A stretch of 20,000 bases of DNA. Origin: an uncultured virus (IMG/VR IMGVR_UViG_3300042386_000493). Taxonomy: Duplodnaviria; Heunggongvirae; Uroviricota; Caudoviricetes. Numbering within the stretch: the first letter of the stretch is position 1; every line of letters begins with the position of its first letter. The notes below the pieces were generated by a model, which was not told where the DNA came from, did not search any database, and saw only the letters and a list, made by a program, of their open reading frames with translations. The DNA is taken from the IMG/VR virus record IMGVR_UViG_3300042386_000493; one strand, given 5' to 3'. Position numbers and translations under genes: made by a program. Positions 7,152 through 20,000 of this stretch are shown in pieces.

Positions 7152-8540
7152 TTATGACAATGATGCGTTGTAGAAGTATCCACATTGCTTGATTGCAAAG
7201 AAGTCAAGACCGAAGTGCGTCAAGTAGTTAGTCACACGGTTGTCAATGTCATTGGTTGGTGTTGGTGCATTCGCTCCAGTCTCCCAAATCTTGAACATAC
7301 GTGATTGACCGTTGTCGCCGTTTTCCGCGTAAGTCAACTCCATATTTCTACGCATTACACCCGTTGGGTCAGTCGCTTTACCCGAAGGCATAAAGTATGC
7401 AGTAGAACAGAATTGGTTGAACTCGTGGTCAAGACCGAACAATTCAGGGTCGTATGATACGTCGAACAAACGAAGGTTGAACGTCATACCCTCTAGTGTC
7501 AATGTTTGGTAGTCAAACGTTGCCATCAAGCCTTCACTCGCTTCACCCGCACCGAAAATCATTTCAGCAGAGTGACGACGAACCGCCTCAATGTTAGCGT
7601 TCTTAGTATAATCAAACAAAGCAGTTTGAAGTGGACGGTTCACGTTACGTGTCAACCAACCCATATAGTTGTTTGGAACAGCATTTGGCTTCAATACGTC
7701 AATCAAGTCCTTCATTGTGTCCAAATCAACACCCGCTTGAATGTCAATAGAGTTTGCTCTTGTTGCAAAGGTATCCATCATACCGCCCGTAGTTTGTGTA
7801 ACTCCAGACGCAGTTGATTCTTTACCCAAGATAAGCTGACCCATTGATTGCTTCAAGTGACGGAACTCCGCTTGTGTGCGTTGAACACCACCCCAATTAC
7901 CAACTACGTTTCCTAGTTCGTCAGTTTCAGGGTATAGTTTATCAACCGCAGCATCACCCGTAATCAAAGCAGATGTTTTTAGCTTTTGAAGTTTGAAAGA
8001 GTATTTAGTCCAAAAACTTGACTTAGCGTCGGGCTGACCCGTGTTTTCGCCATAAGCGTTGGTGTAAATACCGAATTTCTTACCCGCAGTTGGAACGGTA
8101 GCGGTTTGACCGTTAATCTCTTTCGCTTTAAAAGTGAAGTCAGTACCGTCGTCGGTTTTTGAATAAACTTCATAACGCTTGAAAGTTACAGGGTCAATAA
8201 TGAAATCACCTTCGTTCAAGTAGCAAGTACGAATACTTCCTACCACTTCGATTTGTGAAGTAGCAATCTTGAAGCCAAGTTCACTTCCCGCCGTACCCGC
8301 GTTTGCTTTAACCTCGATATAAGTATCGTAACGGTCTTCTTCAAAGTGGAAACCACCTTGTGCGTTACGGATTGCGCGAGTCGCTTGCATTCTCTTCAAT
8401 AGAAGGAACTCTTTAGCGAATTGGTCGCCATACTGATTGAACAGTTTTGTTTGAAAGTCAGGACGTACAAAGTCGGAAGCCGCTAAGATTCCCGATTGAG
8501 CGTACCCTGCTGTATTTGGTGCTACACTATTTGGTTGCAT
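7152..8540 (-). CDS. Major capsid protein (crAss-related type)
   Basis: 462 aa in the order terminase-portal-scaffold-MCP, with a strongly A-rich start and a strong terminator. The C-terminal strand pattern (DIDNRVTNYLTHFGL) is compatible with an HK97-fold capsid protein. Confidence 0.8.
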   Translation of the reverse strand: MQPNSVAPNTAGYAQSGILAASDFVRPDFQTKLFNQYGDQFAKEFLLLKRMQATRAIRNAQGGFHFEEDRYDTYIEVKANAGTAGSELGFKIATSQIEVVGSIRTCYLNEGDFIIDPVTFKRYEVYSKTDDGTDFTFKAKEINGQTATVPTAGKKFGIYTNAYGENTGQPDAKSSFWTKYSFKLQKLKTSALITGDAAVDKLYPETDELGNVVGNWGGVQRTQAEFRHLKQSMGQLILGKESTASGVTQTTGGMMDTFATRANSIDIQAGVDLDTMKDLIDVLKPNAVPNNYMGWLTRNVNRPLQTALFDYTKNANIEAVRRHSAEMIFGAGEASEGLMATFDYQTLTLEGMTFNLRLFDVSYDPELFGLDHEFNQFCSTAYFMPSGKATDPTGVMRRNMELTYAENGDNGQSRMFKIWETGANAPTPTNDIDNRVTNYLTHFGLDFFAIKQCGYFYNASLS

Positions 8541-14553: not shown

Positions 14554-15270
14554 TTAATCTCCTACTTCGGAATATATTTTTCCACCCTTAGCTTGATGCG
14601 GCTTTTCCACCTTGTAGTTTTGCATCACACGCTCCTCTACTCGCAAACCGAGTGTAGCGTAAGCAACAAACTCGCTTACTTCTTGCTCTAATATTTTGCT
14701 CTTATCATTCTCCAGCATTCGCTTCTTACACTCCTCAATTTGTTTTCTAATGTCCTCAATAGCCTTTTGTCTTGCCACTTGTTTTGTTGGGTCGTCTGGC
14801 AGTTTCATACTAAGCACCTCTTCCAAGTCCTCTTGCGACTTTAGCATAATAGCCCAATCGCTTGAACATTGCAACGTTAGGAAAGCCGCTATCTTTTTTA
14901 AGATTAAACGGTTCTTGTTCGCCAACATATCACTTACGTTCCTTTCGTACTTGTTCTCTTTGTTGGGAAAGATATTAAGCATTTCCATTATCTTAGTTTT
15001 CCGCTTTCCTATCTTTGGGTAACTATCGATATAACTACTTCCTAGCGCGTACATCATTATAATATACCGCATTACAAGTTCGTTGTCTAGCCCGTTTAAG
15101 GTCACAAGACGCACCTCTTTGCTTGTTTCTCCGTCATCACCCACTATCTCTACTTCTAATTCCATTTCGGTAGTTGTAAAGACTTCTAATGAGTTTAGTT
15201 CTGCGTGGGCGGTAAATACAGACTCGCTACCAAGCCTGTACTTACCAACCGTTTCAGTTTTCTTTTTCAT
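14554..15270 (-). CDS. Hypothetical helical protein, candidate terminase small subunit
   Basis: 238 aa ending 3 nt before terL, with a coiled-coil C-terminal half. Function inferred from position. Confidence 0.5.
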   Translation of the reverse strand: MKKKTETVGKYRLGSESVFTAHAELNSLEVFTTTEMELEVEIVGDDGETSKEVRLVTLNGLDNELVMRYIIMMYALGSSYIDSYPKIGKRKTKIMEMLNIFPNKENKYERNVSDMLANKNRLILKKIAAFLTLQCSSDWAIMLKSQEDLEEVLSMKLPDDPTKQVARQKAIEDIRKQIEECKKRMLENDKSKILEQEVSEFVAYATLGLRVEERVMQNYKVEKPHQAKGGKIYSEVGD

Positions 15271-15940
15271 CTTTTGTTTGTTTTGCTAATATGTCCGTCG
15301 ACCGAAAGTAATAGAACTCGTCTAGTTCACTACGATAGTCGTCCTCCAACTTCCCCGCCACCCCGCCATTTGAGTCTATTTTGACGGTATCTCCTATTTC
15401 ACATCGGATAATTTGTCTACCACTAGCGTATTTACCGTGAAAACTTGGCACGTACACAACTTTAAACCTATCGGGTGGTGGCTCAGATAAACTCGAAACG
15501 CTTAAATCGATTATACTGCTTTTTACCGCTTCGGTTTTTACCGCAATACACCTATCATTCAAGGCTATCATCTTGTCGCCTCTTTTCGCTAAATAGATTT
15601 CGGGATATGGAATAATAATATACTCCTTGCCGTCTACTTCAAATCTTGCGTTCTCTTTTAGCAAGAGCAAGTTACCCGTAGCGTTAGCGCTCCACCACAC
15701 TTTATCTCCCACCTCCAGCTCCATTTCGCTTTTGAAGTCGTAACCCATTTGTAGAATATCAGTATTCACGGGTATCTTTATAACCAATCCACTACGGGCG
15801 GCAAAACTTGAACGGGTTTCATCTCCAACTGGGTTAATGTGGATTGAGCCTATCTTGGACGTTTCAAATTCATCGACCAAAATAAGAACGCGCCCGTCTT
15901 TCATTACCATTCGGTCAAACTGTTCTTTTGTTAAATTCAT
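15254..15940 (-). CDS. Tandem two-domain GroES/Cpn10-like protein
   Basis: Domain 1: DGRVLI..., SGLVIKIP, LEVGDKVWW, VDGKEYIIIPYPEIY. Domain 2: IALNDRCIAV, FKVVYV, EIGDTVKI, FYYFRSTDILA. The ATG at 15940 (AAACAAAATG context, just after the upstream stop) is preferred over 15973. Confidence 0.75.
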   Translation of the reverse strand: MNLTKEQFDRMVMKDGRVLILVDEFETSKIGSIHINPVGDETRSSFAARSGLVIKIPVNTDILQMGYDFKSEMELEVGDKVWWSANATGNLLLLKENARFEVDGKEYIIIPYPEIYLAKRGDKMIALNDRCIAVKTEAVKSSIIDLSVSSLSEPPPDRFKVVYVPSFHGKYASGRQIIRCEIGDTVKIDSNGGVAGKLEDDYRSELDEFYYFRSTDILAKQTKDEKEN

Positions 15941-15945
15941 TTTGT

Positions 15946-16344
15946 TTATAAGTATAGCCCCAACAATATCCAAATAGTAGCCATATACCCGATTAAGAGT
16001 AAGTATAGCCTAGTGGAATAAGTAAACGAAAAGATAGCGGTTGTACCGTGACTTTGCGCTTTCCATTTTAATTTATATATCGTCGGGTTCAATTTGTTTC
16101 TAACTACGTAATAAGCCCCGTCGTGGTAGAAAGGGAATGTTAAGGTTGCGGGAATAAACATCAGGTAACTGCATTTAAGCCCGTAAATAAGCGTTGTCAC
16201 TATAACACCTCGGATAACCGTAAAGAGTACGTGTATGTGCTTGTATTTGAATCCAAGGTCTGGACGAAGGTGAAATAAAATAGCTTCTTGCTCTCCCAAG
16301 ATTATCGCTACTACCGTCCATAATGTTAAGAATAACAATTCCAT
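15946..16344 (-). CDS. Multi-pass membrane protein of unknown function
   Basis: 132 aa with 3-4 hydrophobic segments and its own promoter box. Confidence 0.7.
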   Translation of the reverse strand: MELLFLTLWTVVAIILGEQEAILFHLRPDLGFKYKHIHVLFTVIRGVIVTTLIYGLKCSYLMFIPATLTFPFYHDGAYYVVRNKLNPTIYKLKWKAQSHGTTAIFSFTYSTRLYLLLIGYMATIWILLGLYL

Positions 16345-16442: not shown

Positions 16443-16663
16443 TTCACAAAGTTACGCTTATAATTGTCGTATGCCGCACCCCCTCGGAAATAAATTGTAA
16501 CAATAGCCGCCACAAAGATTAGCGGTACTGACCAAACACTCCAATTCACCAAATACTCATAGTTTTTCGTGATTGTAATCACCGAAAATAGGGTAAAAAT
16601 GGTGAACAGGACAATTAGGTTGGTGTAATTGTTCCTTTTAAAATACTCTCGTTTAGTTATCAT
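16439..16663 (-). CDS. Small two-TM membrane protein
   Basis: 74 aa with two hydrophobic helices and basic termini; ATGA overlap with the ninG stop. Confidence 0.7.
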   Translation of the reverse strand: MITKREYFKRNNYTNLIVLFTIFTLFSVITITKNYEYLVNWSVWSVPLIFVAAIVTIYFRGGAAYDNYKRNFVK

Positions 16664-17187
16664 TTTAGTTCCTTTATCTTTTGTTTGTACACCTCTATCA
16701 GTTCTTTGATTTCGGGTATTGTTAGTTTTAACTCTCCGTTTCTTCTCTCATTTAATTTATCAAACTCCTCTTGCCCTATTCGATTTGGCAATCTTAATGC
16801 GTACTCTACTAGGTTTCCGTGTAGGTGGAGATTGCAATGGGAGCAACTTCTAAAAACGTTCATTTCATCAAATCTAAGATTGGGATAACTGCCTACTGAC
16901 CAAAAATGGGAAGCGTGACCGTTTGTCACGGGTCTATCACAACTAATACAAGGCAACCCCTTATCTCTCTCTCTTATGTAAGTATTGAAAACTTTTTGAA
17001 GTAAGTTACGCCAGTCACTAGCCGTCATTAATGCCTCTAGCCTAACCTTCTTTTCTTTTGCCCAGCTCTTTTTACTTTCCTTTTTACCTTCCGCTATTGC
17101 ACACGCTACTGAGCAAGTCTTTTGAAAAGAGTTATTGGGACTAAACTTGTTTCCGCATTGCTTACATTTCTTTTCTTTAGTTCGCAC
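16660..17187 (-). CDS. ninG: NinG/Rap-family recombination endonuclease
   Basis: KCKQC...CSVACA, Q..FN.YIR.RD...PCISC, HASHF.SVG...LRFDE.N...C..CN.HLHGN. GTG start. Confidence 0.92.
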   Translation of the reverse strand: MRTKEKKCKQCGNKFSPNNSFQKTCSVACAIAEGKKESKKSWAKEKKVRLEALMTASDWRNLLQKVFNTYIRERDKGLPCISCDRPVTNGHASHFWSVGSYPNLRFDEMNVFRSCSHCNLHLHGNLVEYALRLPNRIGQEEFDKLNERRNGELKLTIPEIKELIEVYKQKIKELK

Positions 17188-17390: not shown

Positions 17391-17735
17391 TCAAAATGGT
17401 AACGAATCCGAGTCACTATCATTTCCTTTTCCGCTACTAGCGCCTTCTTTAAAAACACCCCAAGCCTCGCACTTAGTGTACCATTGCCCGTTGTATTCGC
17501 GGCTTTCAGGCTCGTTATACTTCACCGTTACGGTGTCTCCTAAACCTACTCCATTCAACGATTTCATACTATCGAACTTGTCAGTTTTCTTTAGTTCAAA
17601 AGCCGTCTTTCGAGAATAGCTTTTATCCTTAACTTCTTTAAACCACTCAACAACTACTTGCTGGATTGTTAGTGTGTCATTAATTGTTTTTGGTGTTGTT
17701 ACTGCAATCACCTTTCCTTTCACTTGTAATTCCAT
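17391..17735 (-). CDS. DUF3127-family OB-fold ssDNA-binding-like protein
   Basis: MEL.V.GKVI, GDTVTV.Y....REYNG.WYT...AW, and an acidic tail DSDSDSLPF. Confidence 0.85.
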   Translation of the reverse strand: MELQVKGKVIAVTTPKTINDTLTIQQVVVEWFKEVKDKSYSRKTAFELKKTDKFDSMKSLNGVGLGDTVTVKYNEPESREYNGQWYTKCEAWGVFKEGASSGKGNDSDSDSLPF

Positions 17736-17743
17736 TTGTTTGC

Positions 17744-17995
17744 TTATTTGCGTAAAATTAATTTTAACTGTTCATCACGTATAAATAGTAGTTCTCCCTC
17801 GTCGGTTTGCACCTTTTCAAAATCAAACTTACTAAATAATACTTCATCACCAACCATTACCGAAGTTTTTTTCCCAACTCCGACCACTACCCCCGAAAGG
17901 GATTCTTCTATCGCAATATCGGGTATCTCTAATATGGCTGACTTTTTTTCGGGCGGGTTTTGTTTAACCGCTATCCAATTTCCTAGTACGTTCAT
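17744..17995 (-). CDS. groES: Co-chaperonin GroES (Cpn10)
   Basis: LGNWIAVK, mobile loop ILEIPD, GVVVGVG, VMVGDEVLFSKF, ELLFIRDEQL. Confidence 0.9.
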   Translation of the reverse strand: MNVLGNWIAVKQNPPEKKSAILEIPDIAIEESLSGVVVGVGKKTSVMVGDEVLFSKFDFEKVQTDEGELLFIRDEQLKLILRK

Positions 17996-18519
17996 TATTT
18001 TTCGTAGTTTCTTTGGTTATTCAATGATGTGTATTCCTTCAAGAAGTTAGCCTTAACTATCTTCCAGTCTTTTCTTTCTACTAGCGGGTGTTCCTTCTCG
18101 TGAGTCCAAGCCGTCGCTTCAAAGTCGTCTACTTGCTTTTCCGCCTCATCAACCTCTACCGCGTACTTAGACTCCTCAATGCCGTACTTCCCAAAAACAA
18201 CATCCATCATTACTTGCTCATAACCCCAATACGCTTTAAATGCGTTCTTAATTGGTTTTGGCAAATTACACAAGTACGCTTCACTAGCTTTGTTCAACAA
18301 GCCGTGTATTCCCATCTCCGAGTTAAAGTCTTTACGTCTACGCAATACCTCCAATACTTTTAGAGAGTGAGCAGCAACCGAAACTGGCACGGGATACTGA
18401 CCGTTAAACAAGTTAATGCAAGATAAGGCGTGGGCTATATCCTCAATCCTAATATGACGAGGATTCGGGTCGGTGACGTTAATCATTGCGCCCGTGTATG
18501 TTTTAATTACCGCTTCCAT
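17995..18519 (-). CDS. HD-superfamily YfbR/YfdR-like protein with a degenerate active site
   Basis: I.TYTG, IEDIAHALS, SVA.HS, GLLxxASEAY and P.PIK all match the family, but the HD pair reads NK. Confidence 0.85.
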   Translation of the reverse strand: MEAVIKTYTGAMINVTDPNPRHIRIEDIAHALSCINLFNGQYPVPVSVAAHSLKVLEVLRRRKDFNSEMGIHGLLNKASEAYLCNLPKPIKNAFKAYWGYEQVMMDVVFGKYGIEESKYAVEVDEAEKQVDDFEATAWTHEKEHPLVERKDWKIVKANFLKEYTSLNNQRNYEK

Positions 18520-18854
18520 TAGAAATTAACTCCTATGGTAACTCCTAGAATAGCTGCAATAATACAAAGAATAGCTACCGCTAATCCACTACCTTGTGGT
18601 GCTTCGGTGTCATACTCTTCTGTTGATTTTAAAGCTATAGACTCAATGCTATCTATTAGTTCTAACATTTTTTGTTCCTTACCAGCCAACTCAAAATTCA
18701 ACGCTTGGATTTCCAAATCCTTTTGCTCAATTTCCTTGCGGCTTTCAATAATTGTGTTGGCTATACGCGCACTTGTTTCGGGGGAAAGTTCGCGCCCGTT
18801 TGAACTTTTAAAGTAACATCTTACTACTTTGTTCTCAAATATAATCTTTTCCAT
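18519..18854 (-). CDS. Coiled-coil protein with a C-terminal TM anchor
   Basis: 111 aa ending LAVAILCIIAAILGVTIGVNF; TAATG overlap with the next gene. Confidence 0.7.
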   Translation of the reverse strand: MEKIIFENKVVRCYFKSSNGRELSPETSARIANTIIESRKEIEQKDLEIQALNFELAGKEQKMLELIDSIESIALKSTEEYDTEAPQGSGLAVAILCIIAAILGVTIGVNF

Positions 18855-18905: not shown

Positions 18906-19424
18906 TTAACACTTGTTGTGATAAAAATAGAGCGCGGTTAGAAACTCGTGCAACGCTACTTTTACGTCTTTCTTTGACATCGTTTTAATTATTGTTATGT
19001 TAGGGCAACCCAAGCCCTTTTGGTCTTTACCTCTATTGTGAATAGTATAATATTCATCCGCGCTCAAATTATCCACTTTTGCCTCATAAAATAGTCTTTT
19101 ATCATCGATGTTAAACTCCTTTACCCCAAACATTTCGCTAGTTATATCAAAGTAAAGTCGCGCTGAAATAGTCCCGACGTACTCATTGAACTGCCCGTCG
19201 TGGATAGTAACTAGGTAGTACCTGTAAATAGCTACCGTTGTTTTATTTAAGATAAAGTCAAGTTGCTTTTGGGCGTCTTCCTTACTTAACTTCATACTTT
19301 TACCCTTACACGTTATACATTCGTGCTGGTGCTTGCTTCGTCCATCTACGTATCTATACTTTGTTCTGTAGAAACTCATTAACGGTTTCTTATTTTTGCA
19401 ACTGCTACATATTTTTGTTTCCAT
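18906..19424 (-). CDS. Hypothetical protein with an N-terminal C4 zinc finger
   Basis: KICSSCK..KP...FY...ECITC; TAATG overlap with the helicase stop. Confidence 0.7.
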   Translation of the reverse strand: METKICSSCKNKKPLMSFYRTKYRYVDGRSKHQHECITCKGKSMKLSKEDAQKQLDFILNKTTVAIYRYYLVTIHDGQFNEYVGTISARLYFDITSEMFGVKEFNIDDKRLFYEAKVDNLSADEYYTIHNRGKDQKGLGCPNITIIKTMSKKDVKVALHEFLTALYFYHNKC

Positions 19425-20000
19425 TAGAAAGGGGCTTCTTCGTTAGTGTTGGTTACTTGATATTCGTCGTCGTCAGGGTAAGTGTTTAGAAAACTAGTAT
19501 TCTCCTTAATCTTGTACTTTTCTATATCCAACTCTACTTTTTGAGACTCCGATTTGGGGATGGGTATTGAAGATTGAATGTTCTTTGCAGATTTAGCTAC
19601 TTGTATTGGGTCTTCGTTAAATCTTACATCGACAAACCCACAAGAGTTAGAAAGCATCCTCAATACAATCGGTTCGCTATCGTAGCTTACTTTTCCTCCC
19701 GTCATTGTATCTTTTATCTTTTGAACTTGAATTATGCTTTCGTTCCAACAAATAGGGTCTTTCGGGTCTCGGTGGTAAGTCAAAAAATCGTCAGCCTTAC
19801 TACCAAACTTAGTTCCGCCCTCGTTGTCAGCCATAGAAGGTATTTGCTTCTTACCATTAGCGTCTTTAGTTCGCATCGCTAAAGTATTAGTGTGGGTGTT
19901 CAAAAATATCATACTATCTTCTTGCTTAGTCCATACTCTCATTTCCGATAATTGCTGGTACTGATAATCGTGGCTATTCATTCCAAAAGGTATCTTGGGT
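19424..20000 (-). CDS. DnaB/T7 gp4-like (SF4) replicative helicase, C-terminal part, 5'-truncated
   Basis: IFLNTH (H3-like), PSMADNEGG.KF.SKADDFLTYHR (H4-like), IQVQKIK...GG. The frame stays open upstream of 19981 to the window edge (PKIPFG-MNSH). Confidence 0.8.
   Translation of the reverse strand, partial: PKIPFGMNSHDYQYQQLSEMRVWTKQEDSMIFLNTHTNTLAMRTKDANGKKQIPSMADNEGGTKFGSKADDFLTYHRDPKDPICWNESIIQVQKIKDTMTGGKVSYDSEPIVLRMLSNSCGFVDVRFNEDPIQVAKSAKNIQSSIPIPKSESQKVELDIEKYKIKENTSFLNTYPDDDEYQVTNTNEEAPF

Follow-up and report, generated by a model that had tools for sequence, protein, structure and literature searches.

Phage genes for HD-fold proteins of the YfdR type are very common (20,157 representatives at E <=0.001), and the default annotation of their products is dNMP phosphatase. 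The window analyzed in this study, a stretch of 20,000 nucleotides from an uncultured member of the class Caudoviricetes (IMG/VR IMGVR_UViG_3300042386_000493), carries one such gene (17995..18519; minus strand), and the protein deduced from it, P0001, has the His-Asp (HD) pair and further catalytic residues replaced. Pseudo-enzymes as such are well known. The question raised by this locus is whether the gene is decaying, encodes an enzyme working in some other way, or has been kept for a job that does not need catalysis, and, in the last case, which job that might be.

Gene structure and genomic setting

P0001 comprises 174 residues (plus the stop codon), and its gene is on the minus strand, as are all other features for which window coordinates are given below. 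The ORF shares a TAATG stop/start overlap with an upstream ORF of 111 codons (18517..18521) and a second one with the downstream GroES-like ORF (17993..17997). As the original prediction described, the ORF is full length, both overlaps are present, and the protein reads LLNKASEAY (codons AAC AAA at 18294..18289), LFNGQ at residues 37-41, CN at 84-85, and AE at 126-127. The codons for N76 and K77 are identical in the records L001, L002, and L006. Likewise, the contigs from four of the 24 listed runs (lake-water or freshwater metagenomes) contain no alternative letter at these codons; in one of the four runs, X20, the gene was partly covered, with the NK codons within the covered part. With the same codons in three records and in metagenome contigs, an assembly error as the source of NK is ruled out.

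The window derives from a phage genome and contains genes for a terminase (phrog_6681), a portal protein (phrog_6547), NinG, a single-strand DNA-binding protein (SSB), and two GroES-like proteins, as well as the 3' end of a primase-helicase gene (19424..20000; 683 aa at full length in G001/L181). The P0001 gene belongs to a replication/recombination operon, the gene order of which is kept in two sister genomes. Its upstream neighbor (18519..18854; 111 aa with a hydrophobic C-terminus) has no Pfam or PHROG family, and its downstream neighbor (17744..17995; 83 aa) is GroES/Cpn10-like (PF00166, E 3.9e-8). The same operon includes, by Pfam and PHROG matches, a DUF3127 SSB (17391..17735) and a NinG/Rap junction endonuclease (16660..17187). 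The second GroES-like gene (15254-15973; 239 aa) gave weak Cpn10-type matches in both halves (Pfam over 28-126, below the cut-off; PHROG over 135-232), which suggests a tandem GroES. An ORF of 462 aa (7152-8540), located downstream of the portal gene and a 383-aa gene, probably encodes the major capsid protein by its position; no match to this ORF was found in Pfam, PHROG, or cultured phages.

When the terminase was compared with those of cultured phages, the best listed matches were Flavobacterium phages, with 27% identity over 57% of the terminase, and 86 of the 87 matching records were named Flavobacterium, Cellulophaga, Tenacibaculum, or Maribacter phages. As the terminase matches are named for such phages, we infer that the host of this freshwater phage is probably a member of Bacteroidota. 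The phage may be related to the Flavobacterium/Cellulophaga podoviruses (Pachyviridae-like).

Several differences in gene content were found among the related genomes. The primase-helicase of the window's phage (L181:3035-5086; 683 aa) differs from the 646-aa version in L001 and L002 (L001:5165-7105); high DNA identity between the two is restricted to about the last 200 bases, while the genomes are otherwise 86-90% identical. As judged from these alignments, the replication module has been swapped between the window's phage and L001/L002. The NinG of L002 (L002:9336-9965; plus strand) differs in its C-terminal part and is longer (209 aa versus 175 aa in the window and L001), which is likely an allele swap. 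A CxxC-bearing ORF of 169-172 aa located just upstream (18906-19424 in the window, L001:7105-7614, and L002:7099-7614) seems far more divergent across the three genomes than its neighbors and gave weak N-terminal PHROG matches of the endonuclease VII/HNH type. L001 alone has an additional gene, placed between those for the GroES-like protein and SSB, for a 131-aa RyR-domain protein (L001:8785-9180; plus strand; PF02026, E 6.9e-12), a candidate for a RyDEP-type anti-Thoeris enzyme or sponge. Finally, in the sister genome G002, two very long ORFs flank a gene for a ferritin-like protein (L089:13754-14248; minus strand; PF00210, E 2.8e-22).

Family assignment and the state of the metal site

P0001 matched the profiles of phrog_318 (E 4.1e-27) and phrog_8467 (E 4.3e-20). 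In Pfam, P0001 had no match, and its intact sisters matched PF12917 below the cut-off of that family only; matches in NCBIfam were all sub-threshold, and PADLOC matched none of the proteins submitted (6/6). The structure model of P0001 (pLDDT 94.7) is predicted to resemble Atu1052 (PDB 2gz4) most, with a Foldseek E of 6.6e-10 and a TM of 0.82-0.84, and the structural alignment between the two gave a Z of 23.0 and an rmsd of 2.6 over 173 aligned residues. Further structural matches were OxsA (Z 10.4), YfbR (Z 9.1), and DatZ (Z 8.6), and the dGTPase- and SAMHD1-like chains scored 4.4-5.8. The matches in the ESM Atlas were YfbR-like or unnamed phosphohydrolase clusters only, and the named top matches in the BFVD fold search were HD/COG1896 proteins. 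The profile alignment and structure prediction, both called for in the original prediction, show that the HD fold of the YfdR/Atu1052 branch is intact, whereas the catalytic set is broken. P0001 is a homolog of this branch by both sequence and fold, but several of the catalytic residues are gone, and it should not be classed as an HD phosphohydrolase enzyme.

P0001 and the YfdR-type proteins represented by Atu1052, PHROG 318, and COG1896 have the fold in common over the whole length, together with the scaffold motifs DIAH, SEAY, and PxPxK. While these proteins keep R, H, HD, E, D, and D, P0001 is without R37, H76, D77, D85, and D127 and bears the clade-specific H72, Q102, D106, E116, and W138 (see below for the details). 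E. coli YfbR and the DatZ of cyanophage S-2L (two-metal HD nucleotidase/dATPase) share the HD core with P0001, and H51, E80, P89, and K91 of P0001 correspond to H34, E70, P79, and K81 of DatZ by motif spacing. Nevertheless, the branch of these two is farther removed (11-17% identity when aligned by structure), and their ligands of both metals, reported to be strictly conserved, and the Arg are mostly gone in P0001. We found no Z-genome partner (purZ/mazZ; PurZ/MazG-type Pfam families) in the 50 ORFs scanned out of the 76 listed for the sister genome G002 or in the 19 ORFs of the window.

In DatZ, metal A is bound by H34, H66, D67, and D119 and metal B by E70 and D75, R19 acts on the oxyanion, and K81 contacts the phosphates; the catalytic residues are described as strictly conserved among the close homologs (PMC8065100). 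We mapped the residues of P0001 onto DatZ via the YfbR alignment and motif spacing. N76-K77 (18289..18294) replace the metal-A pair H66/D67, L37 (18409..18411) replaces the oxyanion-stabilizing R19, N85 (18265..18267) replaces the metal-B ligand D75, and E127 (18139..18141), which aligned to the invariant distal Asp of the family, replaces the metal-A ligand D119. On the other hand, the metal-A His H51 (18367..18369), the metal-B Glu E80 (18280..18282; YfbR E72 and DatZ E70), the phosphate-contacting Lys K91 (18247..18249), and E101 are retained; the original prediction is silent on these catalytic or pocket residues. By the DatZ numbering, P0001 has thus lost the Arg for the oxyanion, three of the four ligands of metal A, and one of the two of metal B. 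Judging from these replacements, hydrolysis by P0001 through the two-metal mechanism is very unlikely.

How unusual these replacements are can be seen from the relatives outside the clade to which P0001 belongs. Among the 328 domains with letters at both HD sites (out of 330 found, which are the top-ranked matches and no random sample), HD is kept in 323, D85 in all 328, R37 in 326 (the other two being gaps), and D127 in 326. The original prediction had pointed to four changed motifs, and the changes of HD to NK, D85N, R37L, and D127E in them indeed go beyond chance, but Q41 and C84 are partly ordinary variation. Q at position 41 occurs in 23 of the 262 aligned domains, the clade included. C is the commonest residue at position 84 in the 133 outgroup rows of alignment A5 (43%), and only the D85N half of the proposed change from GD to CN is therefore informative.

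Repeated loss of HD within a single clade

Three protein searches plus a search with a profile were used to define the clade, which is set apart by a gap in the scores (219 to 150 bits). At 90% identity, it comprises 19 clusters, with P0001 representing the cluster of P0002 and the fragment P0005 excluded. Eleven of these clusters are HD-less, and the other eight have the full catalytic set. Outside the clade, 5 of the 328 domains are non-HD, namely P0192 and four domains that each form the dead half of a tandem two-domain protein. In the loci that we fetched, HD was found in 145 of the 148 distinct domains, the remaining three being of the window's lineage. No locus of the other 18 clade clusters was found in the viral, metagenome, or genome contigs searched; L176, considered as one, was rejected because the match was fortuitous and fell within a long ORF of a different frame.

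The tandem proteins (P0123, P0125, P0126, and P0127; 389-413 aa) consist of two YfdR-type domains, one of which has a broken metal site as in P0001 (HS, HN, KD, or RD in place of HD, with the catalytic Glu replaced by R, K, or H). Three of them have the dead domain at the N-terminus, and one has it at the C-terminus. Unlike P0001, which stands alone, the dead domain in these proteins is joined to an intact domain, and its R37 and D85 are retained.

We reconstructed trees from 19 clade and 8 outgroup rows after removing seven catalytic columns. These trees need four changes of the HD state, and the starred branches force four (LG+G4) or three (LG+C20) of them. Trees with a single origin of the HD-less forms accounted for 0% of 200 bootstrap trees, and the AU test against a single origin gave p-values of 1.85e-8 and 5.0e-6, so that one origin for all HD-less forms was rejected. 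An earlier 33-row tree, in which the catalytic columns were retained, needed three changes. With an intact outgroup and joint changes at several residues, we read the changes as losses. On these phylogenetic grounds, HD is regarded as having been lost three to four separate times within one small clade. The HD-less P0008 pairs with the intact P0009, the window's group with the intact P0007, and, less firmly, P0275/P0122/P0276 with the intact P0017.

The replaced residues follow a partly regular pattern. D85 is lost in all 11 HD-less clusters (to Asn in 10), R37 is lost in 10, being L, M, or I in each of them, and D127 is lost in six (to E, T, or S). At positions 76-77, the HD-less clusters have NK, NR, NK, SN, CN, SE, AE, LN/AN, SH, SR, and CR. 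As the replacements differ between lineages, NK as a selected motif of the whole clade was rejected, and no common new pocket chemistry is visible across the HD-less lineages at the sequence level. The original prediction also proposed that Lys could replace the metal charge. Position 77 is K, R, or H in 6 of the 11 HD-less clusters, spread over two separate lineages, which agrees with the proposal for that part of the clade, but it is N or E in the other five. The recurrent change from Asp to Asn is suggestive only, being a single transition, and neutralization of a metal-free acidic pocket, driven by stability, would explain the replacements without any ligand. P0008 and P0009 differ at 30 positions in all, of which only H76, D77, and D85 lie within residues 25-106; this range was picked after inspection, and we do not take the concentration as proof of positive selection.

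Selection on the P0001 gene

All six pairs among the four copies of the P0001 gene gave dN/dS values of 0.009-0.051 at dS of 0.15-0.51 (Nei-Gojobori), and the comparison between the window and L001 found 39 synonymous and 2 non-synonymous differences. In the same genomes, dN/dS was 0.025-0.068 for SSB, 0.048-0.058 for the GroES-like gene, and 0.14-0.23 for the upstream ORF. Fifteen variant sites were detected within the P0001 gene in the metagenome contigs, 14 of them synonymous and one V108I. The P0001 gene is under strong purifying selection, as tight as that on the phage SSB.

These values bear directly on the reading that the gene is functionless and drifting. The branch of P0008 is 0.19 long versus about 0 for P0009, which fits relaxed selection in that other lineage, and the recurrence of Asp to Asn is partly expected from a single transition. 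In the window's lineage, however, the dN/dS values lead us to reject decay; besides, the reading frame is open in all four copies, and the HD-less relatives (41-86% identity) are full length. Decay is thus scarcely credible for P0001. The original prediction that the pseudo-enzyme is retained by selection is borne out by the dN/dS values and by the 11 HD-less clusters among 19; it had named, as one outcome speaking against it, relatives that all keep HD and a copy that evolves neutrally, and we found neither. Altogether, P0001 has likely lost metal-dependent catalysis while being retained by selection.

Residues specific to the clade

If catalysis is dispensable, the residues conserved within the clade may indicate what is not. 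We examined 153 columns, 67 of which vary freely outside the clade (>=2.5 bits). Inside the clade, these 67 columns changed 7.1 times on average (tree length 8.9). No change was found at H72 (18304..18306), Q102 (18214..18216), D106 (18202..18204), or E116 (18172..18174), each of which is present in 19 of the 19 clusters and in 9, 16, 27, and 21 of the 328 domains outside the clade, respectively. P43 and G99 changed once (G99 occurs in 9 of the 328 outside domains), and K95 changed twice. W138 (18106..18108), close to what is presumed to be the base end of the pocket, is near-invariant (18 of 19 clusters versus 3 of the 328 outside domains). The four unchanged residues are common to the intact and HD-less members of the clade.

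Covariation was computed on 481 non-clade sequences. Position 72 covaries with 114-120 (Z 3.8-5.5), while covariation of 116 with 102, 105, and 109 is weak (Z 2.4-2.6; 421 of the 13,366 pairs reach Z 2). These values weakly suggest that H72, Q102, D106, and E116 are grouped in one patch, which is separate from the metal site and made up of helix 5 and the loop after it. Near the pocket, the pairs 41-87 (Z 4.1), 42-139 (Z 4.0), 43-138 (Z 3.1), and 43-98 (Z 2.9) covary, which suggests an aromatic rim close to the base end (42/43, 98, and 138/139). The clade has a one-residue insertion in the loop 113-120, where the aromatic-Pro motif of the family is lost. The invariant patch may thus be purely structural, a polar network that holds the remodeled loop.

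The clade-specific residues also need to be weighed against the possibility that P0001 is still an enzyme, either by residual activity of H51, E80, and E127 or by a new site, metal-independent or binding a second metal, composed of H72, D106, E116, and Q102. With His, Asp, Glu, and Gln, the clade invariants offer typical catalytic side chains; furthermore, H51 is found in nine of the 11 HD-less clusters, and E80 likewise in nine. However, the lineages have lost different subsets (E80Q in P0015/16, H51 in P0006 and P0018, and D127 to E, T, or S), leaving no common residual site. For the new site, the proximity of H72, Q102, D106, and E116 is weakly supported by covariation, and a packing role of position 116 is suggested, as the residue outside the clade is mostly aromatic or followed by Pro. 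We regard an enzymatic role of either kind as improbable.

A bolder reading of the same residues is that the clade built a new functional site, composed of H72/Q102/D106/E116 and the aromatic rim of Y42, W98, and W138, for counter-defence or host takeover, and that the ancestral two-metal centre, being no longer essential, was given up on three or more occasions. We consider this scenario, drawn from sequence comparison, possible but doubtful. If true, P0009/P0008, P0007/P0001, and P0017/P0275 would be natural matched pairs of the transition from enzyme to binder.

Possible functions of a non-catalytic P0001

One candidate function, put forward in the original prediction, is that of a nucleotide or immune-signal sponge, in which the old pocket would bind a ligand without cutting it and the intact members would degrade the same ligand. 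Enzyme and sponge forms coexist in the phage RyDEP family, as reported in PMC13232231; catalytic and non-catalytic members thus occur in one family there as well as here, but fold and ligand are unrelated, and the likeness is an analogy only. A RyR-domain gene is located two genes downstream in L001. In the pocket, the aromatic residue at 38, G40, K91, E101, H51, and E80 are mostly kept, the clade-typical Y42, W/Y/L98, and W138 show covariation with positions close to the presumed base end, and position 77 became basic or His in two lineages. On the other hand, the phosphate-binding Arg37 is replaced in 10 of the 11 HD-less clusters, and the charge of the pocket is 0 to -2 in the HD-less members (-1 in P0001) by a crude count over 14 positions of our own choice. 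The pockets of phage immune-signal sponges usually lie between protomers. In known sponges, a highly positive pocket is reported to be nearly universal, although exceptions exist (10.1101/2025.07.12.664507), unlike those of the HD-less members by this count. Furthermore, P89, which corresponds by spacing to the base contact P79 of DatZ, is lost in four of the nine HD-less rows of A5, and the phage 5'-nucleotidase Dmp of T5, which counters Kongming, is reported to need its catalytic residue (10.1101/2024.12.20.629578). The loss of Arg37 and the pocket charge in particular weaken the proposal, and we judge a sponge role to be rather unlikely.

Alternatively, P0001 could be an inactive subunit or a dominant-negative decoy that forms hetero-oligomers with an active HD enzyme, supplied by either the host or another phage infecting the same cell. 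The related enzyme DatZ is described as a hexamer (PMC8065100), and four of the five non-HD domains outside the clade are dead halves of proteins with HD in the other half, both of which fit such pairing. Nevertheless, the complete 66-kb record of the sister genome G002 has a single phrog_318 match, no intact paralog of P0001 was found in G002 or G003, and no HD-family Pfam match was found in 50 of the 76 listed ORFs of G002. The host dNTPase defences are on distant HD branches (the Z of 4.4-5.8 mentioned above), which would make mixed oligomers unlikely on fold grounds, and the invariants common to the intact members of the clade are left unexplained. The decoy for HD dNTPases envisaged in the original prediction thus loses ground, as the complete sister genome offers no intact paralog as a target, and we hold it to be decidedly improbable.

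The explanation that we favor, albeit tentatively, is that P0001 is a folded, selected pseudo-enzyme that binds a protein partner via its clade-specific surface, with catalysis being dispensable. P0001 would no longer hydrolyze nucleotides by the two-metal mechanism of the family. The ancestor of the clade may have gained a second, non-catalytic job on the surface formed by helix 5 and the loop 113-120 (H72, G99, Q102, D106, and E116, with K95, W98, and F109); this job would have become dominant, after which several lineages dropped the metal site, and the carboxylates left unshielded would have been neutralized (Asp to Asn, Lys, or Arg), keeping the fold stable. The job would most likely be the binding of a protein partner, for example, a host protein of replication or defence. 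We favor a protein partner because the invariants are common to the intact and dead members and seemingly lie outside the pocket, because the replacements in the pocket have no common chemistry, and because YfdR, described as having low nucleotide affinity, binds domain I of DnaA (PMC4776307). The retention of H51, E80, K91, E101, and the aromatic residue at 38 in most HD-less members also fits ligand binding.

YfdR, encoded in a cryptic prophage of E. coli, is probably of the same PHROG family as P0001, as phrog_318 matched the E. coli control and phage matches are annotated as yfdR. It offers a precedent for a non-catalytic binding role, while the binding of DnaA is a feature of YfdR and an analogy for P0001. 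YfdR keeps HD, and its binding to DnaA was seen under overexpression and in vitro, the authors flagging the overexpression effect as a possible artefact (PMC4776307). The primase-helicase of the phage itself is disfavored as the cognate partner, as it was exchanged while P0001 stayed 97-99% identical across the window, L001, and L002.

Implications for the YfdR-type family

Our literature search, which covered titles and abstract openings and a minority of the subscription journals, found no description of an HD-less phage protein of the YfdR type. What appears new from the sequence comparisons is the combination of repeated loss in one phage clade, a shared set of new residues, and matched intact and dead sisters. 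For the HD-less members, the default label of phosphatase is probably wrong. The repeated loss of catalysis under tight selection suggests a non-catalytic function of the family, and the residues possibly carrying it are indicated here. The closely related pairs of intact and dead members make this function directly testable. If it is a function in counter-defence, these proteins would represent a new type of inhibitor on the HD fold.
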